A stretch of DNA of 64,000 bases, from the NCBI GenBank assembly GCA_018302235.1, contig JAGVZW010000033.1, positions 434 through 64,433 on the forward strand, in the 5' to 3' direction. This DNA comes from Candidatus Woesearchaeota archaeon (GTDB lineage: Archaea; Nanobdellota; Nanobdellia; SCGC-AAA011-G17; GW2011-AR18). Position 1 is the first letter of the stretch. The number at the start of each line of letters is the position of its first letter. Both the position numbers and the translations under genes were made by a program. The notes beneath the pieces were generated by a model that made no database searches, was not told the origin of the DNA, and was given only the letters and a program-made list of their open reading frames with translations. This document shows, in pieces, positions 18,126 to 62,916 of this stretch.

Positions 18126-19622
18126 TTATTTCACCTTTAAACCGTATGTTTCTAATTGTTTAATTATATTATTTTCATTTATTTCACTACAAGAAACATC
18201 ACATAATAAAGCCATATTTTTTCTCAATCCAATAGGTGTTCCCTCTGGGGTTTCAATTGGACATAACCTCCCCCAATGGGTTGAATGCAATGCCCTTGCT
18301 TCAAAATTTTCTTGAGTAGAAGTTAATAAACTAACTATCCTATGTAAATGAGAATTAGCAGCTAAAGCATTAGTTCTATCAATATTCTGGCTAATTCCCT
18401 TTCTGCCCCCAGTCCATGTTCCAGTAGCCAAAGAACTTTTGATATTAGAAGTTAATAATTCATCTCTAATAATTATCTTTATAGATTGAAATTTTCCCCT
18501 CTTCACTAATCTTTGAAAATTATACATTATATCTTGAACTAATGATTTTAAATTAGTTCTAACTAAGTCCTCTAATAAATCACCACTTAATTTTAATCTT
18601 TTATTCATGTAATGATCCTTATCTGGAAAATCATTTTTATTTTCAATATGAGATAACATCAAAAATTTTTTTAGAATCTTACATAAATTAAATATCTTTA
18701 TATTTCTTGAATCGGGTGTAACCCCTAAGTGCGGCATAAAATATCTGTCTAATTGTTCTTTACTTCTTTCTATTTTTATCTCTCTAGGTTGTGTTATACC
18801 CATCTTTTTCCCTAAGATTTCCAATGCATCATCTTGATTTTTTATTTCTGCACTCTCATATAAATTAACTAAAAGAATATCATTTAATGATTCATTTCCT
18901 TCACATATAGACCTCATTATATCTTGTTCCTTAGACATACCCAATCCCTTTAAAAGATTTATTACTGGTATTTTATTGAAGCGTGTAAACGTTAAATAGA
19001 TAATACCATCTTTCATTAATTCAAATGTATGTGGTATTCTATAACTTCCAATCTCTGAAAATAATCTACCAACAAAGATATCAGAATCATCCCTTTCCTC
19101 AATAAAGAGTTTATTTGAAGCTAAATCTTCTACTGTAATAAGCACTCTTTCATTACCATTAATTATAAAATATCCCCCCTGATCATATGGATCCTCGCCT
19201 TTTTCTATTAATTCTTCTTTTTTTAATCCATATAAATGACAATATTTTGATTTAATCATGATAGGGATTTTTCCTATTAAAGATGTAAAATTTTCTCTTT
19301 GAATATCATCAACATAAGCGCTTACCTCTAGATAAATAGGTGCAGAATAAGTTAAATTTCTTAATCTCGTTTCAGCAGGAGTTATCTCTCTTTTACTCCC
19401 ATCTGCCTCTATTATAGAGGGTTTTTCTATCCATATTTTTTTTAGTCTTATTATAAAGCTTTCAACCTCTTGTGGAATTATAGTGGGAATAATGTCTCCA
19501 ATTTCATCCACAAGTTTTTGCATACCTTTATCCATAAAATTATTAAAACTTCTTAAATTAGCACTACCAAAAGGATTCTCTTGAAAATAACTGTTTATAA
19601 TCTTTTTATAACCATCAACCAT
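18126..19622 (-). CDS. rpoB2: DNA-directed RNA polymerase subunit B'' (N-terminal part of the split B subunit).
   Basis: 498 aa, ends directly adjacent to the rpoB' start. Split rpoB is characteristic of certain archaeal lineages. Confidence 0.9.
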   Translation of the reverse strand: MVDGYKKIINSYFQENPFGSANLRSFNNFMDKGMQKLVDEIGDIIPTIIPQEVESFIIRLKKIWIEKPSIIEADGSKREITPAETRLRNLTYSAPIYLEVSAYVDDIQRENFTSLIGKIPIMIKSKYCHLYGLKKEELIEKGEDPYDQGGYFIINGNERVLITVEDLASNKLFIEERDDSDIFVGRLFSEIGSYRIPHTFELMKDGIIYLTFTRFNKIPVINLLKGLGMSKEQDIMRSICEGNESLNDILLVNLYESAEIKNQDDALEILGKKMGITQPREIKIERSKEQLDRYFMPHLGVTPDSRNIKIFNLCKILKKFLMLSHIENKNDFPDKDHYMNKRLKLSGDLLEDLVRTNLKSLVQDIMYNFQRLVKRGKFQSIKIIIRDELLTSNIKSSLATGTWTGGRKGISQNIDRTNALAANSHLHRIVSLLTSTQENFEARALHSTHWGRLCPIETPEGTPIGLRKNMALLCDVSCSEINENNIIKQLETYGLKVK

Positions 19623-19857
19623 TAACTACCACCCGATAAAAGATCGTTTCTTTAGCTGTATAACTCATTCTCTTTATTTTTATGATATCTCCCACCTTCA
19701 AATCATTAATATGTTTGATTCCAGGATCACTAATTCTTATATAAGCCAATTTTACCCTATCAATATTGTATTTTTTAAGTAATTCTGACTTTTCATCATC
19801 AGTTAATTTAGTACTTTCAGGTACCCATCTATGCTTTAATATATTAAATTCAGTCAT
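19615..19857 (-). CDS. rpoH: RNA polymerase subunit H (Rpb5 homolog).
   Basis: MTEFNILKHRWVPESTKLTDDEKSELLKKYNIDRVKLAYIRISDPGIKHINDLKVGDIIKIKR. Start placed at the internal Met, because the longer ORF-track start would overlap tRNA-Lys. Confidence 0.8.
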   Translation of the reverse strand: MTEFNILKHRWVPESTKLTDDEKSELLKKYNIDRVKLAYIRISDPGIKHINDLKVGDIIKIKRMSYTAKETIFYRVVVNG

Positions 19858-19876: not shown

Positions 19877-19980
19877 CGGGCCGGACGTGATATACACAAA
19901 CACTGAAACACAGTATTAGTTTTGAACACGCGACCACCTGATTAAAAGTCAGGTGCTCCACCAAGCTGAGCTACCGGCCC
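19877..19980 (-). tRNA. tRNA-Lys (anticodon UUU) with a ~30-nt insertion inside the T-loop.
   Basis: Manual fold: GGGCCGG/CCGGCCC acceptor stem, GCTC/GAGC D-stem, CCTGA/TCAGG anticodon stem with loop CTTTTAA, T-stem GCGTG/CACGT. The T-loop is 37 nt instead of 7 (TTCAAAA plus about 30 nt). Confidence 0.6.
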
Positions 19981-19986
19981 ACCAAT

Positions 19987-20074
19987 CGCCCTGACCGGGA
20001 CTTCCAGTATCCTTTTGAACCCGGGTTGAAGCCTCGACAGGGCTTCGTGCTAGACCGGTCTACACCATCAGGGC
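19987..20074 (-). tRNA. tRNA-Asp (anticodon GUC) with a ~13-nt insertion inside the T-loop.
   Basis: Manual fold: GCCCTGA/TCAGGGC acceptor stem, GTGT/GCAC D-stem, AAGCC/GGCTT anticodon stem with loop CTGTCGA, T-stem CCGGG/CCCGG enclosing a 20-nt loop TTCAAAAGGATACTGGAAGT. Confidence 0.6.
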
Positions 20075-31324: not shown

Positions 31325-32788
31325 ATGGAAAATCAATTAATAAAGGAAAGAAAACAGAAACTAGAGGAAATTAAAAGATTAAAGATTAATCCGTATCCTC
31401 ATAATTTTAACAAAACAACAGATATTCAAAATGTAATTAATTCTTATTCATCCATTAAATCTGAAGAAAAATCAAAAGACATATTTTCAATTGCTGGAAG
31501 AATAATTTTAGAAAGGAATATGGGCAAGGCTACTTTTTTGAACATCCAAGATCAAACTAATTCACTACAATTATATTTAAATCAACAAGAAACTAAAAAC
31601 TATGAATTAATAAAATTTTTAGACATTGGCGATATTATTGGAACTAGTGGGTACCCATTTAAAACAAAAAAAGGAGAATTAACTTTATTCGTAAAGGAAT
31701 TAACAATATTAACTAAATCATTAAGACCACTTCCAGAGAAATTTCATGGTTTAAAGGATCAAGAATTAATTTATAGACATAGGTATCTTGATTTAATTAC
31801 AAACCCAGAATCAAAAAATAAGTTTTTAATAAGAACAAAAATGATTCAGACTTTTAGGGAATTTTTAGACTCTAGAGGTTTTATAGAAGTAGAGACTCCC
31901 ACTTTACAGCCATTATATGGTGGAGCAAATGCAAAACCATTCAAAACATATTACAATGCTTTAAAAAGAGATTTCTATCTAAGGGTTTCAAATGAGTTAT
32001 ATCTAAAAAGATTATTAGTTGGGGGATTTGAAAAAGTCTATGAATTTGTTAAGGATTTTAGAAATGAAGATATTGATACTACCCATGTTCCAGAATTTAC
32101 ACAAATAGAGTTCTATGAGGCATATAAGGATTATATTCATGCAATGGAAATGTATGAACAATTAATAGAATACACGGCAAAAAAGGTTTTGGGAACAATA
32201 GAGGTAATATATCAAGGGAATAAAATCTCTTTAAAAACACCCTGGAAAAGAATATCTATGGTAGATGCTATAAAAAAATATGCTAAATTTGATGTGAATA
32301 AAAAAACAAGAAAAGAATTAACAGATTTTCTAGAAAAAAATAATATAGAATATGAAAAAGAATTGTTAGATGGTATGTTAATAAAATTAATCTTCGAAGA
32401 AACTTGCGAAAAACATTTGATTCAACCAACCTTTATCATAGATCACCCTATAGAAACAACACCCCTGTGCAAACCAAAAGAATTGAACCAAAAATTTGTA
32501 GAGAGGTTTGAGCCTTATATTGCATGTATGGAGGTAGGAAACGCATATTCAGAATTAAATGATCCTATTCTACAAAGAAGATTATTTGAAGAACAAGAGG
32601 AACGTGGTCGTGGTGGAGAAAAAGAAACCCATCCATTAGATGAAGACTTTTTAGAAGCAATGGAAACAGGAATGCCCCCAACTACTGGTGTAGGAATTGG
32701 TTTTGATAGATTAGTAATGATCTTTACAAATTCAGAATCGATTAGAGATGTAATTCTATTCCCACCAATGAAGCCTAAAACAAATTAA
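31325..32788 (+). CDS. lysS: Lysyl-tRNA synthetase, class II.
   Basis: N-terminal OB anticodon-binding domain and class II motifs (FEPYIACMEVGNAYSELNDP, GMPPTTGVGIGFDRLVMIFTNSESIRDVILFP). Confidence 0.9.
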   Translation: MENQLIKERKQKLEEIKRLKINPYPHNFNKTTDIQNVINSYSSIKSEEKSKDIFSIAGRIILERNMGKATFLNIQDQTNSLQLYLNQQETKNYELIKFLDIGDIIGTSGYPFKTKKGELTLFVKELTILTKSLRPLPEKFHGLKDQELIYRHRYLDLITNPESKNKFLIRTKMIQTFREFLDSRGFIEVETPTLQPLYGGANAKPFKTYYNALKRDFYLRVSNELYLKRLLVGGFEKVYEFVKDFRNEDIDTTHVPEFTQIEFYEAYKDYIHAMEMYEQLIEYTAKKVLGTIEVIYQGNKISLKTPWKRISMVDAIKKYAKFDVNKKTRKELTDFLEKNNIEYEKELLDGMLIKLIFEETCEKHLIQPTFIIDHPIETTPLCKPKELNQKFVERFEPYIACMEVGNAYSELNDPILQRRLFEEQEERGRGGEKETHPLDEDFLEAMETGMPPTTGVGIGFDRLVMIFTNSESIRDVILFPPMKPKTN

Positions 32789-34485: not shown

Positions 34486-37400
34486 TTATAATTTAAAACG
34501 TTTTCTTTTTAACACAAAATAAATTCCAACAATTAGTAAAATCCCAAGAATTGCTATTATTATAGGCCATAACAAAGATGTTTCTTCTTCAATCTGTTCT
34601 TCTTGAACCTCTTCTTGTGCTTCCTTTTCCTCTGTTATTGTAGGTATCTCACTAATAATTTGTTCTTTAATCGTTTGTATCCTCAATAATGCTGTATTAT
34701 TTTGTATATTATCCAAACCAACACTAAGATCATAAAAATTATCTGCATTTAAATTAAATTTTTTAGTTTCTCCTATATAAATTACTGCCTCAATAGGCTC
34801 ACTTTGTACAAGAATCTTAACATTATCATCATTAATCTCTTTTACAGTTACAGTATGTGTAGCACCCTCAAAAATAAATTCAACAATATCCCCATCATTA
34901 AAATATTGTAGAATTCCTTGTTCTAATTTCTCATTTGTTACTGTAGTTTTTGTAGTTCCGGTTGGAGTACTACTCCCACCCCCACTTGAACTTGAAGTGG
35001 TAGATAAAGATTCTCTATATGATGAAAATTCACAATATGGTATCTTCCAAACACAATTAATTGAATCCAATAGAGTTGCTTCTGCAGTTTTATCCACACA
35101 ATTTGCACCAGCATCATCACAATGATACAATGTATCACAAACCCCTGTAAATGGTATTTTTAATTTACAGACCTCTGGATGTAAATTACCTATTATTTTA
35201 TCCCTTGTAGCAGAAGTTAATCCCAAAATATTACTATCACTTATTATATCTGCTCCCCCATCAATTGATCTGACCTTATCATTTAAAGCAGTCATTGTTA
35301 AACTAGCATTAATAAATTCAAAATATACACTACTATCATTCTTTGCCATCTTTATATTAACCAACCTTCCATCTGTATAATTTGTTTTCATCCCTGAATT
35401 AGTTCCACATACTTGACCCTGTATATGCTCATATACCCCATTCTGATCTAAATCATACGAAATTACCCAAGCAGAAGTTGTTTTTATTCTTGCCACAAAA
35501 TTACAATATGGACATGTTGCATTAGTAACTGTTATTATCGAACTACATTGACTTACAGCACAATGTGAATCAGTATCACAAACCTTTATCTTATAATAAT
35601 ATCCTGTTTGATTAGAGAGACTAAAATTCAAAGCATTAGTTCCATTATATAAATTTGCAGTATGCCACAACTTATAATCCCTAACATCACTACTTACTAA
35701 ACCTATATCTCTTACTGTTGAATTCACAGTCAAACATCTTGAATAATTAGAATAAAATTCAACTGTACCATTAGTTGGTTTATTTGTATCATACATTATT
35801 AATGCTGAATCTGGATATTCCTCTAATTTTACCCCTAAGACTTGTGGTGATCTAGCATCTGTATATCCTGGAGAATTAACCCCTAAATTTGTGCATGCTG
35901 ATGAAAATTCACAATCCCAATCATAACAATCTAGTGTATTATCACCATCATCATCTACACCATTAAAGCAATCCTCATACTTTACATAACCATTCTTCAA
36001 GATATCCTCAAATTTCGCTACATTAGCTCCATAAGAAAACATACTATCTATCTCAAAATCAATAGTACCTGGTGTAAACCATATTGGTCCAATAGAATCA
36101 CTAACTACTGAAATATTTTCATATAAACCTGCTGTTGAAACATAAATCCTTATTTCTTCAGATGAATTATACAATGTAGGAAATCTAGCTAATTCTGATT
36201 TTTCTACAGCAACCATAGGCCCGCTTATCTCTGAGCACATCTTAGTCTTCCATGTAGTTAGTTTAATATCAGTAGCAGCCCAAGCATTATCATCACATTT
36301 ATACGCTGTTGTAGATTCTATTGATTTGCTATTATTCACATCCCATGTTGAAGTATATTTAAATCTAAATTCATATCCTGTTTTTGTTGTGTCATTTGTA
36401 AGTGCACATCCCCCTGTTGCCAAACCATCTGTATCTAAATATACATAAAGCTTTATAGTATCATTCCCATTACCAACTTTATCAGCACCATAAATATACG
36501 CTGGAAGTTTTTCTTTATTACATATTGAAGAATTAGAGAAATCCCTAACCTTTACACCATATCCAAAGGCATTTACCATATCCTTCACTCCAATATTGCA
36601 TATATCTATACTTCCTGCAATAGTAGTCTCATTACAATCATCATACCCTAATGGCATCATTATACCGCTTTCCATTCCAGTAAATATTTCATTCATAAAT
36701 CCAGGATTACACCATCCAGTCATCCATTTGCACCCAAACCCACAACCAGCCTGTGCAGTTTGATTATAACATGTGGGTTCACAAGTTCCCCATGCAGTAA
36801 CATTACAATAAAGATTATTATTACACTCTGTTTCCCAATCTGTTGGATTAGCCCATTTTTGTAATGTACTATTCATCCAACATTGATCCATAATATTAGT
36901 ACACCAACCATATCCTGATTCATTATTCCACCAACAATTATTTGTTGCATTGCATCCCCCCCCTGCAGGTGATAAATACATCCAACAACTACTATTAGTC
37001 CAGTCTACATCACAAAAAGGCATAGGTTCTGGGAACCATCCACATGTAAGATTAATATGTGTTTTATTTGTGCATAAACTTTGATTACCATCATATTTAT
37101 AACAATTAGAACCTGCAGCAGTAGCTACTCCACCTGCACCCATAGTCGATGCACTTGAAAATCCCCCATATTTAGGATCACACCACCCAGATTCCTTCCA
37201 TGTACATCCAGATGTAGCCTGACAACCCCCTTGATTGTACATATTTGAGGCTGAAGAACATGTTTCTAGATCCTCTTCCTGACACCATCCATTTTGATCC
37301 TTCCATTGACAACCACCTTGTGCATTACAAACAGATGATGAACTCTGATTACCTAACAAAAAACACCTTGGTTCACAAAAAGTATATGTCCAATCAGAAC

Positions 37401-40347
37401 GCCAAAAACATAAGGAATTTCCATTAGCATCAAATTGATTCGCACATGCAGCAGTAGTACTAGCACTCCAACATTTCTCAGTTGGATTTGCACACCATCC
37501 ACCCCATGTATCATTCCTCCACCAACAATCTGCATCAACACAAGTAGAATTAGAATAATATTGCCAGCAATTAGCACTATAATTTACCTCACAATGTGGA
37601 GTACTATACGAATCTACATACCAATTACATCCATCTGTATTATTACAGTTTGTTGATGTTGTATACATCCAGCAATTCTTTGGTTTAAAATTATTATGAT
37701 CACACCATCCACCAGCACCAGTACACCATGTTGTAGTATTACCCGTACCTAAACACCAAGAATCCGCAGTCCAATTACAACCATTTCCAGAAGCTGCATC
37801 ACAATTAGCCTTACTTAAACCCATACATAACTGAGTTTGACTCCAATCCTCTTCACACCAAGAATAACCAGTACCATTCTGCCATAAACATTGTGTACGT
37901 GAATTACAATAAGTTTCATTCGTATCATACTTCCAACACTGCGAACCTGGAGAATCACACCAAGTCCCCCACTTATCAACAACCCACTCACAACTATTAG
38001 TTTCACACGTTGCTTGCGTTACCCATCCAGAACATTCACCCCCAATAAAACCGCAATAACTATCTGAATAACAAGCACTGTCCATACAATCTATCAATTG
38101 ATTATTATTATTATCTGACCCATCCCAACAAATCTCTCCACTCTCTCCTACATTTGAAGAACAATATCCATCACTTGATGTTCCCTCCCACTTACAAGCC
38201 CCACTAGTATTTGAAACATCAGCTCTACCTAAACCCTGACAATCTGACTGTGTATAACACCTATCACAAGCATCTAAACATGTTTTATCCCCTTTTTTTA
38301 AACAATAACCACCTATAGTCATAGAAGTGTCTACCACCCATTTACAACCACCAGCACCAGAGTTTGCATTACTATTCTCACAATAACTTCCTGGTCTCTT
38401 TGTTGTATCATTACTAAGCGGATCTCCCATATATGTACATGCCCCACAATCAACATTACAATCCACTACAACATTATTTTTATATTGATATTTAGTTTTA
38501 CAATAGCCAATATTATTAGATGCTCTTGTATCAGCCTCAAACTCACAAATCCCTAAAAGAGAATTTCTGCACGCAGAATCAGCATTAGTCGCATTTACAG
38601 TATTCCCATCGCTATCTTCATATTCACAACCATAACAAGCCTTATCACAACTTACATCACCTCCAAACTTACTCTCACATCTTCCAGTAGGAACAGAAAT
38701 ATTACCCTCACAATAACTCTCAGTAATCCAATTTCCTCCAGTAAATTCACAAGTTCTCTTGTTAGTCAACTTATTCAGGCTTTGAGATGTATTCCCAAAG
38801 ATATCTGCTGCATCTACCAAGCATCTCTCTGTTGTATTATCCCATTTACAAGGCATATACCATGGATCACCACTAATCTGTTCACATAAAGATTTATCAG
38901 TATAAGAACTATAATCCTCACAAAAATTTGCACCCGCTGGTGGTGCTGACATCTGATCCCAACATGTTGTAATCAATTTGTTTGCAGTACAATTATTATA
39001 TTGCCAAGAGCAACACGATGATAACACAGATATACTATTACATAAATTTGAATCATTTATATAACTACACTTTATTCCATTACCTGTAATATTAATTCCA
39101 TAATTGTTGGTTAATGTATTGCATTTTTCACTAGAATAATTACAACCCAATGTCAAATTACAATTTGTTTGATTCATATCAAAAACATAACATCCAGGAT
39201 TCCATTCCTCAAATATTGTAGTAGAACTATTTGTTAATGTCCAATTTGGCGTCTGACAGCTACCACCTACACCTAGGTTATTTAGATCAGTATACACCCA
39301 CCAACAATAAGATGTTGCAGAACAATCATATTGTGTTGTTTTATTCGCACAACCTGTTGTCGTATAATCTTTATAACACCACCCTGGATTAGTAGCATTT
39401 GTAGCATTAGAATAATCATTCCATTGACAATTCATACTATAGGTATTGTTCTCACATGCACTTGCATTTCCCCCCTTTGCACCATCCCAACTCCAACATT
39501 GAGCCTCTTCGCAATAAGATGTTGATTGAGAAGATTTCCAATAACAATTAGTCATATTAGTACATGTATTATTAGCAGTAAAAGTCCAACAATCCTGCGT
39601 TGTACAATAATTACTACTCCATTTACAACTTAAATTATAGGTATTATTCACACACGCTGTCTGATTAGTCCAATCATAAACATAACATGCTGGTTCCTGA
39701 CACCAATTATTTCTCCATGCACAATTGATTTCATCTGTCACAGACGCACATGCTGTCTGATTAGTATAACTTGAACACCATCTCTCTTGACAAAGATTAG
39801 CACTCCATGTACAATTTTTACCATTCCATGATTTGCCTGCATTACACGTTGATTGAGTAGTATAATCAATACCACAATTTCTATAATCACACTTTCCCCA
39901 ACTACAACTTGTTGTATTTAAACATGAAGCTCTTGTCGTCTGTGCTGAACAATCTGCAGACCATAAAAGGTTATTATTATAACAACTCTCACTCCATTTA
40001 CATCCTAGATTCCTTGAATTATTTTCACATGTATTCTGATTTGTTCCATATAAATCATAACATGATGCCGTACCACAATAATTAGTGGTCTTGGAACCCA
40101 CCCAAGTACAATTTTTTCCAGTAATTACAGTATTTGTACATTCATTTTGTGAGCCTAGATTCCAACAAGCCAATTCTGTACAGTATTTTCCCCCAGAATA
40201 CTGCTTCCAAATACAAGCATTAGCAGCAGTACAACTTGCATTATTAGTCTCAGTATACAACCAACAATTTGCACCATATATTGACTTAATAAAAACAAAA
40301 ACTAAAAAAAATATTAAAAGATAAATGTATATATTATTTTTCTTCAT
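34486..40347 (-). CDS. Giant (1953 aa) secreted, C-terminally membrane-anchored, Cys/Trp-rich repeat surface protein.
   Basis: Signal peptide MKKNNIYIYLLIFFLVFVFIKSIYG. Dozens of ~30-aa modules of the form C-[WY]-x(4-6)-N-x-[ST]-x-C-x(4-8)-C-x-W-x(4-8)-C. Very dense N-x-S/T sequons. A Ser/Thr-rich linker (SSSGGGSSTPTGTTKTT), an acidic stretch, a C-terminal TM helix and a KRKRFKL tail. Confidence 0.8.
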   Translation of the reverse strand: MKKNNIYIYLLIFFLVFVFIKSIYGANCWLYTETNNASCTAANACIWKQYSGGKYCTELACWNLGSQNECTNTVITGKNCTWVGSKTTNYCGTASCYDLYGTNQNTCENNSRNLGCKWSESCYNNNLLWSADCSAQTTRASCLNTTSCSWGKCDYRNCGIDYTTQSTCNAGKSWNGKNCTWSANLCQERWCSSYTNQTACASVTDEINCAWRNNWCQEPACYVYDWTNQTACVNNTYNLSCKWSSNYCTTQDCWTFTANNTCTNMTNCYWKSSQSTSYCEEAQCWSWDGAKGGNASACENNTYSMNCQWNDYSNATNATNPGWCYKDYTTTGCANKTTQYDCSATSYCWWVYTDLNNLGVGGSCQTPNWTLTNSSTTIFEEWNPGCYVFDMNQTNCNLTLGCNYSSEKCNTLTNNYGINITGNGIKCSYINDSNLCNSISVLSSCCSWQYNNCTANKLITTCWDQMSAPPAGANFCEDYSSYTDKSLCEQISGDPWYMPCKWDNTTERCLVDAADIFGNTSQSLNKLTNKRTCEFTGGNWITESYCEGNISVPTGRCESKFGGDVSCDKACYGCEYEDSDGNTVNATNADSACRNSLLGICEFEADTRASNNIGYCKTKYQYKNNVVVDCNVDCGACTYMGDPLSNDTTKRPGSYCENSNANSGAGGCKWVVDTSMTIGGYCLKKGDKTCLDACDRCYTQSDCQGLGRADVSNTSGACKWEGTSSDGYCSSNVGESGEICWDGSDNNNNQLIDCMDSACYSDSYCGFIGGECSGWVTQATCETNSCEWVVDKWGTWCDSPGSQCWKYDTNETYCNSRTQCLWQNGTGYSWCEEDWSQTQLCMGLSKANCDAASGNGCNWTADSWCLGTGNTTTWCTGAGGWCDHNNFKPKNCWMYTTSTNCNNTDGCNWYVDSYSTPHCEVNYSANCWQYYSNSTCVDADCWWRNDTWGGWCANPTEKCWSASTTAACANQFDANGNSLCFWRSDWTYTFCEPRCFLLGNQSSSSVCNAQGGCQWKDQNGWCQEEDLETCSSASNMYNQGGCQATSGCTWKESGWCDPKYGGFSSASTMGAGGVATAAGSNCYKYDGNQSLCTNKTHINLTCGWFPEPMPFCDVDWTNSSCWMYLSPAGGGCNATNNCWWNNESGYGWCTNIMDQCWMNSTLQKWANPTDWETECNNNLYCNVTAWGTCEPTCYNQTAQAGCGFGCKWMTGWCNPGFMNEIFTGMESGIMMPLGYDDCNETTIAGSIDICNIGVKDMVNAFGYGVKVRDFSNSSICNKEKLPAYIYGADKVGNGNDTIKLYVYLDTDGLATGGCALTNDTTKTGYEFRFKYTSTWDVNNSKSIESTTAYKCDDNAWAATDIKLTTWKTKMCSEISGPMVAVEKSELARFPTLYNSSEEIRIYVSTAGLYENISVVSDSIGPIWFTPGTIDFEIDSMFSYGANVAKFEDILKNGYVKYEDCFNGVDDDGDNTLDCYDWDCEFSSACTNLGVNSPGYTDARSPQVLGVKLEEYPDSALIMYDTNKPTNGTVEFYSNYSRCLTVNSTVRDIGLVSSDVRDYKLWHTANLYNGTNALNFSLSNQTGYYYKIKVCDTDSHCAVSQCSSIITVTNATCPYCNFVARIKTTSAWVISYDLDQNGVYEHIQGQVCGTNSGMKTNYTDGRLVNIKMAKNDSSVYFEFINASLTMTALNDKVRSIDGGADIISDSNILGLTSATRDKIIGNLHPEVCKLKIPFTGVCDTLYHCDDAGANCVDKTAEATLLDSINCVWKIPYCEFSSYRESLSTTSSSSGGGSSTPTGTTKTTVTNEKLEQGILQYFNDGDIVEFIFEGATHTVTVKEINDDNVKILVQSEPIEAVIYIGETKKFNLNADNFYDLSVGLDNIQNNTALLRIQTIKEQIISEIPTITEEKEAQEEVQEEQIEEETSLLWPIIIAILGILLIVGIYFVLKRKRFKL

Positions 40348-41340: not shown

Positions 41341-41452
41341 GCCTCACTAGCTCAGCCTGGTTAGAGCGCCACTCTCATATGTTTGAGAAATGAAGCATTA
41401 GCTAATGAACTAAGAAAGGTGGAGGTCGGGGGTTCAAATCCCCCATGAGGCA
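41341..41452 (+). tRNA. tRNA-Met (anticodon CAU) with a 37-nt intron at the canonical 37/38 position.
   Basis: Manual fold: acceptor GCCTCAC..ATGAGGC, D-arm GCTC/GAGC, anticodon stem CCACT/GGTGG with CTCATA followed by the intron (41380..41416), T-arm GGGGG TTCAAAT CCCCC. Confidence 0.7.
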
Positions 41453-44168: not shown

Positions 44169-45905
44169 ATGAAAACAAAATATAGAACCCATACTTGTGG
44201 GCAATTAAATAAAAATGATTTAAATAAAGAAGTTACATTAGCTGGATGGGTTCAAGCTAGAAGAGATCACGGTGGATTAATTTTCATAGATTTAAGGGAT
44301 AGATATGGTTCAACACAAATAGTTTTTAATCCTGATTTTAATGATTTTAAATTAGCAGAATCTCTAAGAAGAGAATATTGTATCCAAATAAAAGGCAAAG
44401 TAAAATTAAGACCTAAAGGCATGATTAATAATAATCTCTCTACTGGGGATATAGAGGTTGAGGTAAATGAAGTAAATCTATTAAATAAATCAGAAGTTCC
44501 ACCATTTGAGATTGATGAAAGGATAGAAATTAATGAAGATTTAAGATTAAAATACAGATATTTAGATTTAAGAAGAAAAAATATGTTAAAAAACCTAGAG
44601 TTAAGGTATAGAATGACTCAAATTGTAAGAAATTTTTTAGATAAACATAATTTTATTGACGTTGAAACCCCTTGTTTAACTAAATCAACCCCAGAAGGTG
44701 CAAGAGATTATCTTGTTCCATCAAGAGTTAATCCAAAACAATTTTATGCTTTACCACAATCACCCCAATTATTCAAACAAATTTTAATGATCTCAGGTTA
44801 TGACAGATATTATCAAATTGTTAGGTGTTTTAGAGATGAGGATCTAAGAGCTGATAGACAGCCAGAATTTACTCAGATAGATATTGAAATGGCCTTTATT
44901 GAAGAAGAAGATATTCAAAATATTGTTGAAGGTATAATGAAGGAATTATTTAAAGAATTCAAAAATAAAGACTTAAAATTACCATTAAAAAGAATAAGTT
45001 TTCATCAAGCAATAGAAACCTATGGTTCTGATAAACCAGATTTAAGATTCAATTTAGAATTAATTGACGTTGATGAGATAGTAAAAAAAAGTGATTTCAA
45101 TATATTTAAAACATCAGAATTAGTTAAGGCAATTAGTTTAGAAAAAGAAATTTCTAGAAAAGATTTAGATGAAATAACTGGCTGGGCCATGAGAAATGGT
45201 GCCAGAGGCTTAGCATGGATTAAAGTTAATGATGGAAAATATGATGGAGCTGTTGTAAAATATTTTAAAGAAAAAGAGTTAAAAGAATTAACAAAAAAAT
45301 TAAATGTTAAAAATGGAGTAATATTTTTTGTTGCAGATAAAAGAAAAACCGTTAATGAAGTTTTAGGAAGATTGAGAAATTATTTAGCTGAAAAATATAA
45401 ATTAATTGATGAAAATAAAGATGAATTATTTTGGGTAGTTGATTTTCCATTATTTGAGTATTCAGAGGATGAACAAAGATGGGTTTCAGTACATCATCCA
45501 TTTACTCAACCACATCCAGATCAAGTTAAAAAGATGACTACTGACCCGGGAAATGTTAGATCTAGGGGTTATGACTTAGTTTGGAATGGTAATGAGATAG
45601 CTGGTGGTTCAATAAGAATCCATGGACAAGAAATGCAATCAGATGTGTTTAAGTCATTAGGGATATCAGAAGAAGAGGCTAAAATCAAATTTAGTTTTTT
45701 ATTAGATGCCTTAAAATTTGGCGCACCACCACATGGAGGAATAGCTTTTGGTTTAGATAGATTAACTATGCTATTTGCTAAAACTAATTCAATAAGAGAT
45801 GTTATTGCTTTTCCTAAGAATAAAGATGCAGTTTGTTTAATGACAAATGCTCCTTCTCCAGTAACAGATTCTCAATTGAAAGAATTACATATTAAATTAA
45901 GATAA
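44169..45905 (+). CDS. aspS: Aspartyl-tRNA synthetase, bacterial type (with GAD insertion domain).
   Basis: THTCGQLNKNDLNKEVTLAGWVQARRDHGGLIFIDLRDRYG is a bacterial AspRS N-terminus. 578 aa, class II motifs, C-terminal GGIAFGLDRL. Confidence 0.9.
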   Translation: MKTKYRTHTCGQLNKNDLNKEVTLAGWVQARRDHGGLIFIDLRDRYGSTQIVFNPDFNDFKLAESLRREYCIQIKGKVKLRPKGMINNNLSTGDIEVEVNEVNLLNKSEVPPFEIDERIEINEDLRLKYRYLDLRRKNMLKNLELRYRMTQIVRNFLDKHNFIDVETPCLTKSTPEGARDYLVPSRVNPKQFYALPQSPQLFKQILMISGYDRYYQIVRCFRDEDLRADRQPEFTQIDIEMAFIEEEDIQNIVEGIMKELFKEFKNKDLKLPLKRISFHQAIETYGSDKPDLRFNLELIDVDEIVKKSDFNIFKTSELVKAISLEKEISRKDLDEITGWAMRNGARGLAWIKVNDGKYDGAVVKYFKEKELKELTKKLNVKNGVIFFVADKRKTVNEVLGRLRNYLAEKYKLIDENKDELFWVVDFPLFEYSEDEQRWVSVHHPFTQPHPDQVKKMTTDPGNVRSRGYDLVWNGNEIAGGSIRIHGQEMQSDVFKSLGISEEEAKIKFSFLLDALKFGAPPHGGIAFGLDRLTMLFAKTNSIRDVIAFPKNKDAVCLMTNAPSPVTDSQLKELHIKLR

Positions 45906-50789: not shown

Positions 50790-51440
50790 ATGAAATCATT
50801 ATACTGTAATGGAAAATATTATTTATGGAAAGAAGGAGATCTGCACACTAAAGACGGATTTCTAAAAGAAGCAGACATAAAGAATAAAACATCCGCAGAA
50901 TCAAATATAGAAAAAAAATTTTATATATTCGAGCCATCTTTTAATGATTTATTAAAAAAAATACATAGAGGACCACAAATACCCCTACAAAAAGATATTT
51001 TACAGTTATTAAATTATATTAATAAAGATTCTATTGTCTTAGAAGCAGGCACTGGTTGCGGCTGTGTAGCTTTAAACCTAGCTAGATTTGTAAAAAAAGT
51101 AATAACCTATGAAAGAAATAAAGAATACATTAAAATAGCCAAAAAAAATTTTAATTTATTCAATATAAACAACATTGAAGTAATAAATAAAGATATTTTT
51201 GAAGGGATAGAAGAAAAAAACATAGATATGATTTTTTTTGATTTAGAAGAACCATATAAACTACTAAATGAGGCAAATAAATCATTAAAACAGGGAGGAT
51301 ATCTAATTATCTACTTACCAAATATTCCACAAATACAAGATGTAATTAGAGAGAATAATAATTTTATTCATGAAAAAACTATTGAAATTTTAGAGATGAT
51401 TGGTCATACTGGATTTTTAAATATATTTAGAAAAATATAG
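50790..51440 (+). CDS. Class I SAM-dependent methyltransferase, TrmI (tRNA m1A MTase)-like.
   Basis: VLEAGTGCGCVALNLARFVKKVITYERNKEYIKIAKKNF resembles the TrmI/GCD14 SAM-binding block. Confidence 0.5.
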   Translation: MKSLYCNGKYYLWKEGDLHTKDGFLKEADIKNKTSAESNIEKKFYIFEPSFNDLLKKIHRGPQIPLQKDILQLLNYINKDSIVLEAGTGCGCVALNLARFVKKVITYERNKEYIKIAKKNFNLFNINNIEVINKDIFEGIEEKNIDMIFFDLEEPYKLLNEANKSLKQGGYLIIYLPNIPQIQDVIRENNNFIHEKTIEILEMIGHTGFLNIFRKI

Positions 51441-53722: not shown

Positions 53723-54118
53723 TTAATACTTCCTTTTTCTTCTATCTAATGTTAGAAGTTCAATTTTAAATGGATCTTTTTTTATTTCTTTAACTATTGT
53801 AGCTGGTCCAACAATAGTTAAACCATTTGATCTACCCAATAAAAAATTAGCAATTTTTAATCTGATCCTCTCAAATAATTCCTGATTTTGTTTAATGTTA
53901 TCAATACTGCATATCTCGATCCCCTTAAATTTTTTATCTATTTCCTCCATTGTTTTAGTTATTAATTCTGCCTCTTCATTAGGATCTAATTTTCCCTCTA
54001 TTAAAATTATCTTATCCTCTTTTACACTCCTTAAAATCTTTTTTAATTTTTCTTCTGTATTCAAATTTCCAAGTTCATGATATGGGATATATTGTAACGT
54101 TAACAATTTTTTGTTCAC
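53723..54118 (-). CDS. Conserved archaeal hypothetical protein, possibly DUF2073-like.
   Basis: 131 aa, overlaps the upstream GTPase stop by 4 nt and lies 3 nt upstream of the Zn-ribbon gene. Confidence 0.35.
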   Translation of the reverse strand: MNKKLLTLQYIPYHELGNLNTEEKLKKILRSVKEDKIILIEGKLDPNEEAELITKTMEEIDKKFKGIEICSIDNIKQNQELFERIRLKIANFLLGRSNGLTIVGPATIVKEIKKDPFKIELLTLDRRKRKY

Positions 54119-56136
54119 CTCTTTTTCACCATTTCAAATACCTTATCATAAAATTCCTCCATGTTTAAGCCCTTTTCAGCTGATATGCCTATAACAGAAT
54201 ATTGAGGAAATGCATCTTCTATTTTTTTTACATCAGATTTCTTTAAATCTGTTTTATTAGCTACAATTAAAACTGGAATATCCCTTGCAGCTAAATTACC
54301 TATAATTGTTATATTTACTTGATTATATGGATTTCTAGTTGAATCTAATACAATTAAAACACAATCCATATCATCCAACCATTTTATTGCATCTATAATC
54401 CCCTTTGTAGCCTCTTTCGCCCTTTCTTTTGCTTCATCTATCTTCATTTTAAATTTAAGAAAATCCTCATAATCAATCTTTGTAGCGATTCCTGGTGTAT
54501 CAACTAGATTAAAACTTAATTCCTTTCCCTTTGAATTAATAGTGATTTTTTCCTTCATATTTATTTCCCTTGTTTCATGTGGAATAGAAGATACTGTTCC
54601 CATATCTTCCCCTAACCAATCCTGACATATTCTATTTGCAATGCTAGTATTATGAGCGATCAGGCCATTAGAAATAATAAAGGTATGTGTATCTTCAATT
54701 GTTAAATCATAAATATAATCATTATATTCTTCTTGAGTTATTTCTTTAATTTCATCCCACAAGTTATCTGAATTAGTTAAAGTCTTTATAATTTTATTAT
54801 TTAATACTCTAGACATTTTCTCTAATCTATGATATGATATTCTATTATCTCTGTACATTCTAGCAATATGTTTATTATCTAAATAAAATTCTTCTTCTTT
54901 TAATTTCTCTTGTTTTCTTATATTTTCCAATAAACCCATAATAGGCAAATAAAACTTATTTCTTTTTAAACAACATTTGGATAGTTTATCTAATCTTTCA
55001 GCTTTATATTTTATTCTAAAACCAATTTTTTCTTTAAACAATCTGTGATTATCACTTCCAAATATAAATAAACTCCAGTAGGCTTGACCATTAATTAATT
55101 TTGATCTAAATCTCCCTACAATCCCAAATCTATTTAAAAGTAATTGAACTTGTTCTACCAAAATTTTACTTTTGGTACTATATTCAATCTGATTGCTAGA
55201 ATTTTTAGTTAATTTAGAAACATAACCCCCCATATCAAATAAAATTTGTAATAATTTTGCTGTTAAATTATCAGGTAAACCCATAAATTGTGAAGGAATT
55301 TGTTTATTACCTGAAAGAGATGGTTTGAAATTTAAACTTTTTTCTAAAAAATCAGTTAATGTTCTTGAATTTAATTCTCTTTCAGGCACACCATTATTTA
55401 TTCTTTTAATGGCTTCTAAATTGAATAATTTTTTTGTTAAATAATCAAAATGATTTAATGCGTATTCGTCTGAATTACTAAATTTAATCACGCTTTTTGT
55501 ATAATATGCTTCTGTAATTAGATAACCTATAAAACTAACTAAATCTTCATCTATGTAAGAAGGTATAATTATCTCTTTTTGATTATGAAATTTAGATATT
55601 ATTTGTATCATATTGCCATTAACGTTGAAACAATTTTCAGTAATTAATTTGGGTAACATAATGTTTGTTGCTAAGGATAACTTTTTTGCAATAGCAATAG
55701 ATTCATTAGCCTTTAAACCTCCAGTTCTTATATTCTCTACGCCATTATTTGAAAGCCTGATTAATGGATGTTCTGGTGTAACTCTTATTTGTCTACCCGC
55801 TTTAGTTAAAATATTATATATTTTTCCTTTATATTTTTGAGCATAAACAAAACTCACTCGTTTTGGAATTATTTTTAAGGTTTGTGTATTAAAACTTGGT
55901 ATGATTAAATTTTTAGATCTTACATCAATATATATTTCATTAAATGAATTATTATGGTTTACGCTATCAAATATTTCTTTTATTGTTTTAATTTCTCCAT
56001 TCATTAATACAATTTTAGTTTCTGGTGTAACACATTTTCCGCTGTTCGGTGGCCCATAAAGTCCTAATTTTATATTCTTCTTTTTATTAAAAATTGACCT
56101 TAAATTAAAAAAGAAAACCTTAAGCTTACGAATCAT
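54115..56136 (-). CDS. Small Ras/Era-like GTPase interrupted by an intein in the P-loop. The mature extein is about 211 aa.
   Basis: Extein motifs are GLYGPPNSGK|...|TSI (G1, split), DTPG (G3), NKTD (G4) and SAEK (G5). The intervening 462 aa begin with Cys and end with HN, followed by Thr. Confidence 0.65.
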   Translation of the reverse strand: MIRKLKVFFFNLRSIFNKKKNIKLGLYGPPNSGKCVTPETKIVLMNGEIKTIKEIFDSVNHNNSFNEIYIDVRSKNLIIPSFNTQTLKIIPKRVSFVYAQKYKGKIYNILTKAGRQIRVTPEHPLIRLSNNGVENIRTGGLKANESIAIAKKLSLATNIMLPKLITENCFNVNGNMIQIISKFHNQKEIIIPSYIDEDLVSFIGYLITEAYYTKSVIKFSNSDEYALNHFDYLTKKLFNLEAIKRINNGVPERELNSRTLTDFLEKSLNFKPSLSGNKQIPSQFMGLPDNLTAKLLQILFDMGGYVSKLTKNSSNQIEYSTKSKILVEQVQLLLNRFGIVGRFRSKLINGQAYWSLFIFGSDNHRLFKEKIGFRIKYKAERLDKLSKCCLKRNKFYLPIMGLLENIRKQEKLKEEEFYLDNKHIARMYRDNRISYHRLEKMSRVLNNKIIKTLTNSDNLWDEIKEITQEEYNDYIYDLTIEDTHTFIISNGLIAHNTSIANRICQDWLGEDMGTVSSIPHETREINMKEKITINSKGKELSFNLVDTPGIATKIDYEDFLKFKMKIDEAKERAKEATKGIIDAIKWLDDMDCVLIVLDSTRNPYNQVNITIIGNLAARDIPVLIVANKTDLKKSDVKKIEDAFPQYSVIGISAEKGLNMEEFYDKVFEMVKKR
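54649..56034 (-). other. Intein (about 462 aa) with a LAGLIDADG-type homing endonuclease domain, inserted after the P-loop Lys.
   Basis: Block A is CVTPETKIVLMNGE directly after GPPNSGK. The C-terminal block is THTFIISNGLIAHN, with Thr as the +1 residue. Internal LAGLIDADG-like motifs are LVSFIGYLITEAYY and LLQILFDMGGYVS. Confidence 0.6.
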
Positions 56137-58281: not shown

Positions 58282-58881
58282 ATGGAAAAACGCACTGACT
58301 ATTTTGAAACAAAAAATAGGGAGTTTTATTATGAATTTAAACAAACAGAAGATAAGAAAAAACGCGAAGAATGGGTATTATTTAACAAACATCTTGTTTA
58401 TTCTATAGCAAAAAAATTTACTAATTTTAGTATATATGATGATATTATTCAAGAGGGGTATATTGGCTTAATCCATGCTGTAGATAGATATAACCCGAAT
58501 TTAGGGAATTTTAGCAGTTTCGCATACTCTGCTATAATGAGAGAAATAATTAGATATATAAGAAAAAATAGATCAATAGTACATCCCCCTATAAATAATC
58601 AGCTAAGTGTATCAAAAGACGTAGCTATTGATGATATTATAGACCTAGAAGCAGAAACAAATCCAGAAACAGTACTACAAAAAAAAGAATTGGTTGAAGA
58701 TGTTCAAAAAACATTAAAATTAACAAGTTTAAGTGATATCTTAATTAGAATAATGTATGATGAAAATACATCAATAATAGCCAGAGCATATAAAGTATCT
58801 AGAAGAGAAATGCACCAATTAGAAACTAGGGCAGTTAAAACATTTAAAAAAAGATTCGAAACACCTGAAGCCTATATTTAA
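58282..58881 (+). CDS. Sigma-70-family-like protein (regions 2 and 4) encoded in an archaeal context.
   Basis: DIIQEGYIGLIHAVDRYNPNLGNFSSFAYSAIMREIIRYIRKNRSIVHPP aligns with sigma-70 regions 2.1 to 2.4 (DLIQEGNIGLMKAVDKF..G.KFSTYA.WWIRQAI.R.I...RTIRIP). IARAYKVSRREMHQLETRAVKTFKK resembles the region 4.2 HTH (VTRERIRQIEAKALRKLR). Confidence 0.55.
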   Translation: MEKRTDYFETKNREFYYEFKQTEDKKKREEWVLFNKHLVYSIAKKFTNFSIYDDIIQEGYIGLIHAVDRYNPNLGNFSSFAYSAIMREIIRYIRKNRSIVHPPINNQLSVSKDVAIDDIIDLEAETNPETVLQKKELVEDVQKTLKLTSLSDILIRIMYDENTSIIARAYKVSRREMHQLETRAVKTFKKRFETPEAYI

Positions 58882-61477: not shown

Positions 61478-62221
61478 TTAAATAATATTCTTAATTTCTT
61501 TAAATATAACAGCAAAATTAGGAACTATAGAAACATAATCCTTCAATTCATTTGACCATAAATTTTCCATATCTTTAATCTTTAATAAAAAAGACTTAGA
61601 ATCATATTTTTGATTATAATATTTTAATTTTTTATTAATCAGACTAATATCAAATTTAACACCTTTTCTTAATAAAAAATAAAAATCAAATATGTCTCTT
61701 GGTTTGCTTCTATTCATTATTGTTCTTACCTTTTCAGCCATAATTTCTCTCTCATCCATTACTAAAATATTATATGGTCTCAAATCAGAATAAACAGGAA
61801 ATATTTCAATTAATTTAGGATCTAACAAAATACTCTCTCGTAAACTGATGTCTAATCGAAGAGTACATAAACTAACTAAACTATTTACATATAAAGGCCC
61901 TTTTATCTTAAAAATAAAATTTTTTCCCAAATTTTTAACTTCTTCAAATTTAGTCTCATATCCAAAATCAGTTAAAGAATTAGCTATCTTAGAAATTAAA
62001 CTAATATCAAAATCTTTTGTTTGTGTAAAATCCAAATCTATACTAAACCTATTCAAACCATAAATCTTCTGCATAGCAGTTCCACCCTTAAAAATTAATT
62101 CATTAGAAAAATATTGTGACAAAAAGATTAAAAATAAATGTTGTAAATAATCCTTTTCGACTTGTGCTAAATTAAATCCTATAACTGAACAATATTTATT
62201 TAATTCATTTTTAGTTATCAT
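61478..62221 (-). CDS. AbiEii/DUF1814-family nucleotidyltransferase (type IV toxin-antitoxin / abortive-infection toxin).
   Basis: IFKGGTAMQKIYGLNRFSIDLDF matches the conserved DUF1814 N-terminal block (GGTAL...RFSxDxDF). Confidence 0.65.
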   Translation of the reverse strand: MITKNELNKYCSVIGFNLAQVEKDYLQHLFLIFLSQYFSNELIFKGGTAMQKIYGLNRFSIDLDFTQTKDFDISLISKIANSLTDFGYETKFEEVKNLGKNFIFKIKGPLYVNSLVSLCTLRLDISLRESILLDPKLIEIFPVYSDLRPYNILVMDEREIMAEKVRTIMNRSKPRDIFDFYFLLRKGVKFDISLINKKLKYYNQKYDSKSFLLKIKDMENLWSNELKDYVSIVPNFAVIFKEIKNII

Positions 62222-62916
62222 TCCAATACCTCATTAATATTTAATCTCCATCTAACTGAGTTATTTTTGCTTTTTTTCAAATAAGGATTCAAAAGATCAT
62301 ATCTATTGTTAATTTTTACCTTTTTTGATATATCAATACTAATCAAATCCAATAAAAACCCCAATCTTTTTAACAAAACAATAGAATTCATCAGTAAAGC
62401 ATATTTTAATAATTTTTCAATATCAATTTTATTTTTTAAAACCTCAAAAGTCTCAGAAATTGGACAAAATTTAGGTAGATATAAAGAATCAATTATAGCT
62501 TTTTCTAACTCTGCAACAAATAAATAATTCTTTTTATAAATCATCTTTCTATAGCCAAAAACATTTTTTAAAACAACAAAATTAATAGTCATCTTATTAA
62601 AAATTAAAGATTTTTTTGGTTTAGAAGAAACAATATAAATAGTCTTAGGAATTTGTGTAGTCAAACCATAAATAGAGTAGGCACTAATAAAAGAGATATA
62701 TGACGGAAAAATCAAATTAGAAGCAACCTCATAAGGTTCATCAGATAGAGTATATTTATTTTTTTCTATCTCCGTAATAATATTCCTTTTTTTTAGTCTA
62801 TATATATACAAACGACTATACTCTTTATTTTTATTAATAATCTTAGAGATATCATTTAATGTTAGAACTGAAGTTTTCATAGTTTCAATTTTTTTTAAAA
62901 AATCAAGTGCTTGCAT
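62218..62916 (-). CDS. AbiEi-like antitoxin/transcriptional regulator partner of AbiEii.
   Basis: 232 aa. Its stop overlaps the AbiEii start by 4 nt. The N-terminal region is wHTH-like. Confidence 0.45.
   Translation of the reverse strand: MQALDFLKKIETMKTSVLTLNDISKIINKNKEYSRLYIYRLKKRNIITEIEKNKYTLSDEPYEVASNLIFPSYISFISAYSIYGLTTQIPKTIYIVSSKPKKSLIFNKMTINFVVLKNVFGYRKMIYKKNYLFVAELEKAIIDSLYLPKFCPISETFEVLKNKIDIEKLLKYALLMNSIVLLKRLGFLLDLISIDISKKVKINNRYDLLNPYLKKSKNNSVRWRLNINEVLE

Follow-up and report, generated by a model that had tools for sequence, protein, structure and literature searches.

We consider it highly probable (about 0.9) that the 64,000-nt stretch of DNA analysed here (the window) carries two functional tRNA genes, tRNA-Asp(GUC) and tRNA-Lys(UUU), each interrupted by a protein-spliced archaeal bulge-helix-bulge (BHB) intron between positions 59 and 60 of the T-loop. 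This reading is built on the structure of the genes, the fit of their junctions to the splicing motif, covariation among related species and the conservation of the exons.

Structure and setting of the two tRNA genes

The segment 19877-20074 of the minus strand consists of exactly two tRNA genes, arranged head to tail. They are given below with the downstream gene and a third tRNA of the window.

20074..19987, minus strand: tRNA-Asp(GUC) gene with one intron (hand reading; called tRNA-Asp(gtc) by ARAGORN once its T-loop is trimmed; cloverleaf when spliced)
20014..20074, minus strand: tRNA-Asp exon 1, positions 1-59, ending ...CCGGG TTCAAA
20001..20013, minus strand: tRNA-Asp intron, 13 nt (AGGATACTGGAAG), site 59/60, relaxed hBH/BHL form
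19987..20000, minus strand: tRNA-Asp exon 2, positions 60-73, T CCCGG TCAGGGC G
19981..19986, minus strand: spacer between tRNA-Asp and tRNA-Lys, 6 nt, ATTGGT
19980..19877, minus strand: tRNA-Lys(UUU) gene with one intron (hand reading; called tRNA-Lys(ttt) by ARAGORN once trimmed)
19921..19980, minus strand: tRNA-Lys exon 1, positions 1-59, ending ...GCGTG TTCAAA
19891..19920, minus strand: tRNA-Lys intron, 30 nt, site 59/60, full hBHBh' form
19877..19890, minus strand: tRNA-Lys exon 2, positions 60-73, T CACGT CCGGCCC G
19615..19857, minus strand: rpoH (RNA polymerase subunit H / Rpb5 C-terminal domain; Pfam PF01191, E = 9.5e-23)
41341..41452, plus strand: third tRNA, anticodon CAT, interrupted in its anticodon loop by about 37-39 nt of intron, T-loop normal at 7 nt (Rfam RF00005, 48 bits)

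Both tRNA-Asp and tRNA-Lys possess a regular acceptor stem, D-arm, anticodon arm and 5-bp T-stem, with G73 as discriminator and no encoded CCA. Their anticodon loops (CTGTCGA for Asp and CTTTTAA for Lys) are undisturbed at 7 nt and thus free of introns, as a preliminary description of this DNA had stated. The T-loops are 20 nt long in tRNA-Asp (TTCAAAAGGATACTGGAAGT) and 37 nt in tRNA-Lys (TTCAAAACTAATACTGTGTTTCAGTGTTTGTGTATAT); these lengths and the outer coordinates, taken from the same description, were exact on rereading. Removal of 13 nt (Asp) or 30 nt (Lys) after A59 gave a normal cloverleaf in each case: the spliced tRNAs, of 75 and 74 nt respectively, fold as cloverleaves and share the T-loop UUCAAAU. 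Split or permuted tRNA genes could be ruled out, as both genes are contiguous and colinear. The same region was found in two independent assemblies (L001 and L002), and is therefore not an artefact of assembly. An identical RpoB'' was also found on groundwater-metagenome contigs, including a scaffold from Rifle (ANAN16-1).

Standard searches overlooked this region. ARAGORN called no tRNA in the whole window and, when its intron options were used, neither the Asp nor the Lys gene in this region; a tRNA-Leu returned by one relaxed run was spurious. With the Rfam tRNA model, the two genes scored 26.9 and 13.8 bits, both below the gathering threshold of 29, in alignments that bypassed the T-arm and took a false 3′ acceptor strand. 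Since these scores were reached only by bypassing the T-arm, the model gives the extra bases no better position, for instance in a variable arm, which the preliminary description had named as a possible objection. Once the T-loops were trimmed to 7 nt, ARAGORN called both tRNA-Asp(gtc) and tRNA-Lys(ttt). A scan for T-arms with matching acceptor strands, allowing upstream interruptions of up to 400 nt, found no further hidden tRNA in the window.

The third tRNA (41341-41452) was also mishandled by ARAGORN, which misplaced its intron and called tRNA-Ser(cga). By hand, the intron is apparently located at the canonical 37/38 position (ARAGORN places it differently), with a mismatch at acceptor pair 7:66 and a C·A mismatch in the central BHB helix. 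Its only intron being in the anticodon loop, the window itself lends no support to the earlier suggestion that this genome uses non-canonical tRNA introns widely; the comparison across the lineage, presented below, does point that way.

The rpoH ATG (19857) lies 19 nt beyond the 3′ end of tRNA-Lys, and the two tRNA genes are indeed, as previously noted, directly upstream of the rpoH cluster. rpoH is the first gene of an RNA polymerase cluster on the minus strand, which further includes a split rpoB (B'' and B'), rpoA' and rpoA''. Because the spacer between them is only 6 nt, tRNA-Asp and tRNA-Lys would share one precursor transcript. The order tRNA-(Asp)-Lys-rpoH is retained in nearly all of 80 related species: every tRNA-Lys is situated just upstream of rpoH, and tRNA-Asp usually stands immediately before tRNA-Lys. 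This conserved order, together with the 19-nt gap, suggests that the polymerase operon shares a transcript with the tRNAs or owes its 5′ end to tRNA 3′ processing.

Several other features of the window (GC 27.4%) deserve mention. An aspartyl-tRNA synthetase with a GAD domain (44169-45905, plus strand), which we take to be a bacterial-type architecture, and a second class II synthetase of the D/K/N type (31325-32788, plus strand) may be the cognate enzymes of tRNA-Asp and tRNA-Lys. A 199-aa ORF (58282-58881, plus strand) matches bacterial Sigma-70 region 2 (PF04542, E = 2e-16) and is located within about 1 kb of genes for archaeal L21e and an Rpb4-like RNA polymerase subunit; it is odd for an archaeon and may have been acquired from bacteria. 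A GTPase gene (54115-56136, minus strand; MMR_HSR1 / GTP_EFTU domains) is split by an intein whose homing-endonuclease domain is of the LAGLIDADG type. An AbiEii-type nucleotidyltransferase toxin gene (61478-62221, minus strand; PF08843, E = 4e-31) is slightly overlapped by a 232-aa ORF that has no Pfam match (62218-62916, minus strand) and may encode the antitoxin partner. Finally, a very large ORF of 1953 aa occupies 34486-40347 of the minus strand.

The splicing motif in the window and in related species

An archaeal intron is marked by a BHB, in which two 3-nt bulges on opposite strands are separated by 4 bp and the cut falls after the second base of each bulge (PMC3239211, PMC5829648). 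A search for this motif around the junctions, which the preliminary description had proposed as a check, found it in both genes, as a full hBHBh' with mismatches in tRNA-Lys and in the relaxed hBH/BHL form in tRNA-Asp. The two junctions have a common layout: T-stem / TTCA / AA^A ... / TGGA or TGTA / NN^T / T-stem, where ^ marks the proposed cut.

In tRNA-Lys, the junction reads GCGUG / UUCA / AA^A / CUAAUACUG-UGUUU-CAGUGUUUG / UGUA / UA^U / CACGU. Its central helix joins TGTA (19896-19893) to T54-A57 (19926-19923) through three pairs and one U·U, and its inner helix joins CTAATACTG (19919-19911) to CAGTGTTTG (19905-19897) over 9 positions, one of them a U·U mismatch; AA^A and TA^T form the bulges. 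In tRNA-Asp, the junction reads CCGGG / UUCA / AA^A / GGAUAC / UGGA / AG^U / CCCGG, and the central helix, formed by TGGA (20006-20003) with T54-A57 (20019-20016), has 4 bp including one G·U. Here the bulges are AA^A and AG^T, the inner helix is absent and the 5′ site lies in a loop, which corresponds to the hBH/BHL form. In neither case was the BHB fold the predicted minimum: it reached -6.6 against -13.5 kcal/mol for the minimum-energy fold in Lys, and -7.6 against -9.5 kcal/mol in Asp. These modelled energies are a caveat, chiefly for Lys. Within the A-run, a shift of the cut by one base is conceivable; 59/60 was chosen because of the BHB geometry and of the invariant T60 in relatives.

We then compared this region with that of 80 related loci, obtained by a scan of species-representative genomes with RpoB'' (56-78% identical) and labelled nearly all as Woesearchaeota, Nanoarchaeota or Nanoarchaeia. 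Genes were detected by a scanner that combined TTCRA with a perfect T-stem and a perfect acceptor stem, the spliced product being checked by ARAGORN, and by a second method, spliced alignment of the window's mature tRNAs against each locus. With the window included, the totals were 75 tRNA-Lys(UUU) and 31 tRNA-Asp(GUC) genes, of which 29 and 15 respectively contain a T-loop intron. Introns were numerous: tRNA-Lys genes carry 0-3 of them, with a mean of 1.72 and only 6 of 75 genes intron-less, and tRNA-Asp genes up to three, some introns exceeding 100 nt (multi-intron examples are found at L056 2466-2732, L074 366-643 and L064 2351-2517). Besides the T-loop, they occur in the D-arm, at about 31/32, at 37/38 and at about 43-48. 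A count of four introns for the tRNA-Asp of L066 was discarded, as one intron of about 45 nt had probably been split in two by the alignment; its close relatives L064, L068 and L078 have three.

All 43 delimited T-loop introns (12-92 nt, the two of the window counted) occupy one site and follow one layout with unrelated sequences: T-stem / TTCR / AA^N ... YGAA-like / NN^T / T-stem. Introns of the same design as that of Lys are found at the orthologous position in L003, L008, L011, L016 and L023. The exon motif TTCG faces CGAA or CGAG in 11 of 12 introns, and TTCA faces TGAA, TGGA or TGTA in 22 of 31.

Covariation was assessed on a junction alignment of 32 columns and 40 introns of at least 15 nt from related species. 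In it, 87.5% of the cells were paired as against 71.7% in shuffles, none of 500 of which reached the observed value. This alignment was built around the proposed layout and is biased in its favour; as a partial control for this, we slid the partners by 1-3 columns, whereupon only 28-56% were paired, which argues for a real signal in spite of the built-in layout. The central helix was 90.5% paired, its pair 57:x1 being A-U in 20 sequences and G-C in 9, and the inner helix showed changes on both sides at all four pairs across the 40 introns. Helices of the motif are thus accompanied by compensatory changes in the orthologues. Restored cloverleaves, junctions of BHB or hBH type and covariation all bear out the initial proposal that the inserts are non-canonical introns placed in the T-loop at about 59/60.

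One further resemblance, the hexamer ATACTG, is present in both the Asp and the Lys introns, as had been pointed out, and the question was whether it carries any meaning. Sharing of a 6-mer occurred in 2.8% of shuffles of both introns and, for segments drawn at random from the window, in 11% of pairs, and ATACTG is absent from the orthologous introns of L003. Given these control rates and this absence, we rejected it as a mark of common origin or of intron transposition; the match is probably due to chance.

Alternative explanations

The best-surviving alternative, though a very improbable one, is that both genes are decaying pseudogenes with T-loops disrupted by insertions, functional copies being present elsewhere in the genome. 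It would account for the rejection of both genes by standard finders, and with 64 kb of the genome in view other copies could exist. All four stems are nevertheless intact in both genes and the spliced forms are normal cloverleaves. Compared with the nearest species (L003, RpoB'' 78% identical), the exons are identical at 73 of 75 and 73 of 74 positions (97-99%), while the introns (13 versus 25 nt and 30 versus 32 nt) have little identity left and the flanks have diverged. Such conservation of the exons beside diverged introns argues against pseudogenes, the objection that the preliminary description had itself anticipated; judged from this comparison, the Asp and Lys exons appear to be under purifying selection and the body of the intron free to vary. 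The gene pair is moreover kept upstream of rpoH across the order, and its junction motif is maintained by compensatory changes. Finally, genomes of this group are small (0.74 Mb in one complete relative) and the median in the phylum is 35 tRNAs, which leaves little room for duplicate copies.

Slightly less probable again is retention of the inserts, which would yield mature tRNAs with an enlarged T-loop or an extra arm. The minimum-energy folds do place an independent hairpin in the Lys insert, in agreement with such an arm. Among orthologues, however, insert length ranges from 12 to 92 nt and 46 of 75 tRNA-Lys genes have no T-loop insert, a behaviour unlike that of a structural element of a mature tRNA. 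The only conserved part is the four bases pairing with 54-57 plus the 2-nt bulge, that is, the splicing signal. The elbow contacts between T-loop and D-loop require a free T-loop, and pairing of the insert with 54-57 would block them.

Self-splicing introns (group I or II), or leftovers of a mobile element or of an integration event at a tRNA attachment site, can practically be dismissed: tRNA 3′ halves are often integration targets and group I introns are known from archaea and from tRNA genes of small-genome bacteria, but a ribozyme core takes a hundred or more nucleotides, so that inserts of 13 and 30 nt are effectively excluded by size, no Rfam intron family was found in the window even at E <= 10, and the inserts have no direct repeats of tRNA sequence around them, with exons colinear and complete.

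Proposed splicing, known systems and detection

With protein splicing of BHB introns as the preferred explanation, processing could proceed as follows. An Asp-Lys precursor would be transcribed and its ends processed. In this precursor, the T-stem (49-53/61-65) would serve as the outer helix, and a central helix of 4 bp would arise from pairing of UUCA 54-57 with four intron bases that lie 2 nt upstream of the 3′ splice site. Both bulges of each intron would be cleaved by the tRNA splicing endonuclease (EndA) after the second base of their three, between A59 and the first intron base (i1) in A58 A59^i1 and before U60 in NN^U60, and an RtcB-type ligase would join the exons. Ligation would release U54-A58 to adopt a normal T-loop with its elbow contacts to the D-loop. 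A Pfam scan found neither EndA nor RtcB among 50 of the 62 window ORFs of at least 70 aa. A58, which opens the 5′ bulge at both junctions, is also the likely target of a 216-aa methyltransferase encoded in the window (50790-51440, plus strand), whose best match (E = 7e-14) is GCD14, one of the subunits of the tRNA m1A58 methyltransferase complex. The position of A58 in the bulge implies that methylation would have to follow splicing or else tolerate the precursor.

The proposed arrangement resembles that of a canonical intron. By hand reading, 59/60 on the T-arm is geometrically equivalent to 37/38 on the anticodon arm: each arm has a stem of 5 bp and a loop of 7 nt, and the intron separates the sixth loop base from the seventh. 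In both, the stem acts as the outer helix, the first four loop bases pair with the 3′ part of the intron, and cleavage follows the sixth loop base and precedes the seventh; the difference is the arm concerned. To our knowledge, 37/38 introns are handled by every EndA type and found by standard tRNA finders.

Nor is 59/60 an exotic site, as the preliminary description had supposed: it is listed in a review among recurrent non-canonical intron positions (PMC4090602) and has been tested in ARMAN-2 (Candidatus Micrarchaeum acidiphilum), whose pre-tRNA-Cys(GCA) contains a 13-nt hBH intron at 59/60 that is cleaved in vitro by the ε2 EndA, and whose tRNA-Pro has two T-loop introns (Fujishima et al. 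2011, PMC3239211). The Asp intron of the window shares with this Cys intron a DPANN host, the site, the length of 13 nt and the hBH/BHL form, and differs from it in the tRNA and in the phylum-level lineage, the sequences being unrelated.

How such an intron fares depends on the endonuclease. A mini-helix mimicking the ARMAN-2 59/60 junction was cut by a crenarchaeal (αβ)2 EndA and left uncut by the α'2 enzyme of Archaeoglobus (AFU) and by that of Methanopyrus (M. kandleri), and substrates lacking the inner helix are refractory to strict α4 or α'2 enzymes (PMC5829648). The absence of an inner helix in the Asp intron would accordingly count against protein splicing if the EndA of this organism were a strict α4 or α'2 enzyme. 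Conversely, as the Asp intron is only of the hBH/BHL form, EndA must tolerate relaxed substrates; the broad specificity thus predicted from a 13-nt intron bears on the proposal that endonuclease architecture and disruption of tRNA genes have evolved together (PMC5829648). The ε2 type is reported only from the Micrarchaeum group, the other DPANN lineages being discussed as having an α4 type with an L3 loop (PMC5829648). Kaneta et al. (2018), who predicted the tRNA genes of one Woesearchaeota genome, described such α4 EndAs with L3 in multiple DPANN lineages, associated them with pronounced disruption of tRNA genes, and considered that disrupted genes probably lie hidden behind incomplete tRNA sets (PMC5829648). 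Introns of the 59/60 type in DPANN archaea are therefore already anticipated.

Outside DPANN, non-canonical and multiple tRNA introns are reportedly described, in the work of Marck and Grosjean in 2003 and of Sugahara and colleagues in 2008, for Thermoproteales and other Crenarchaeota/Thaumarchaeota. BHB and relaxed introns in these groups recur at particular sites, number up to three per gene and evolve fast (PMC4090602, PMC4033280). Relatives of the window organism are similar in having 0-3 introns per tRNA-Lys gene. They differ in that the EndA of the former is an (αβ)2 enzyme with the crenarchaeal loop (L1), while the host here is a mesophilic, AT-rich (27% GC) DPANN archaeon. The order's mean of 1.72 for tRNA-Lys, which concerns one gene and is not directly comparable, can be set against 0.84 genome-wide in Thermoproteales (quoted in PMC8450103).

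The known mechanism is unchanged, and the intron type is one already described in other archaea. What is new is its extent in this lineage, with 1.7 introns per tRNA-Lys gene and ARAGORN missing nearly all such genes. Among the literature searched, we found no description of the order-wide intron pattern documented here. In relatives, ARAGORN assigned the right identity to 9 of 74 tRNA-Lys and 7 of 30 tRNA-Asp genes, figures that became 22 of 74 and 8 of 30 with the intron option; of the 42 genes with an intron in the T-loop, a single one was recovered. tRNAscan-SE searches for non-canonical introns and may outdo ARAGORN.

For annotation, the value of the finding is that two essential tRNA genes were invisible to ARAGORN and below the Rfam threshold. 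In a 2026 preprint on 208 complete Nanobdellota genomes (median 35 tRNAs), tRNAscan-SE covered all 20 amino acids in only 96, and tRNA loss or split genes were considered as explanations. Heavily interrupted genes with several introns are a simpler and checkable alternative for such incomplete sets.

A broader reading joins these points, and we advance it tentatively, holding it at somewhat less than even odds: Woesearchaeales may be among the lineages with the most intron-dense tRNA genes, 59/60 may be an old site, EndA may be of the α4 type with L3, and tRNA finders may overlook many genes. Should this be true, the T-loop site 59/60 would be an old insertion point, repeatedly used or vertically kept, and the α4-type EndA with the DPANN L3 loop would represent a third independent route to a broad substrate range. 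Many of the 'missing' tRNAs of the phylum would then be overlooked multi-intron genes, rather than genes lost or split.
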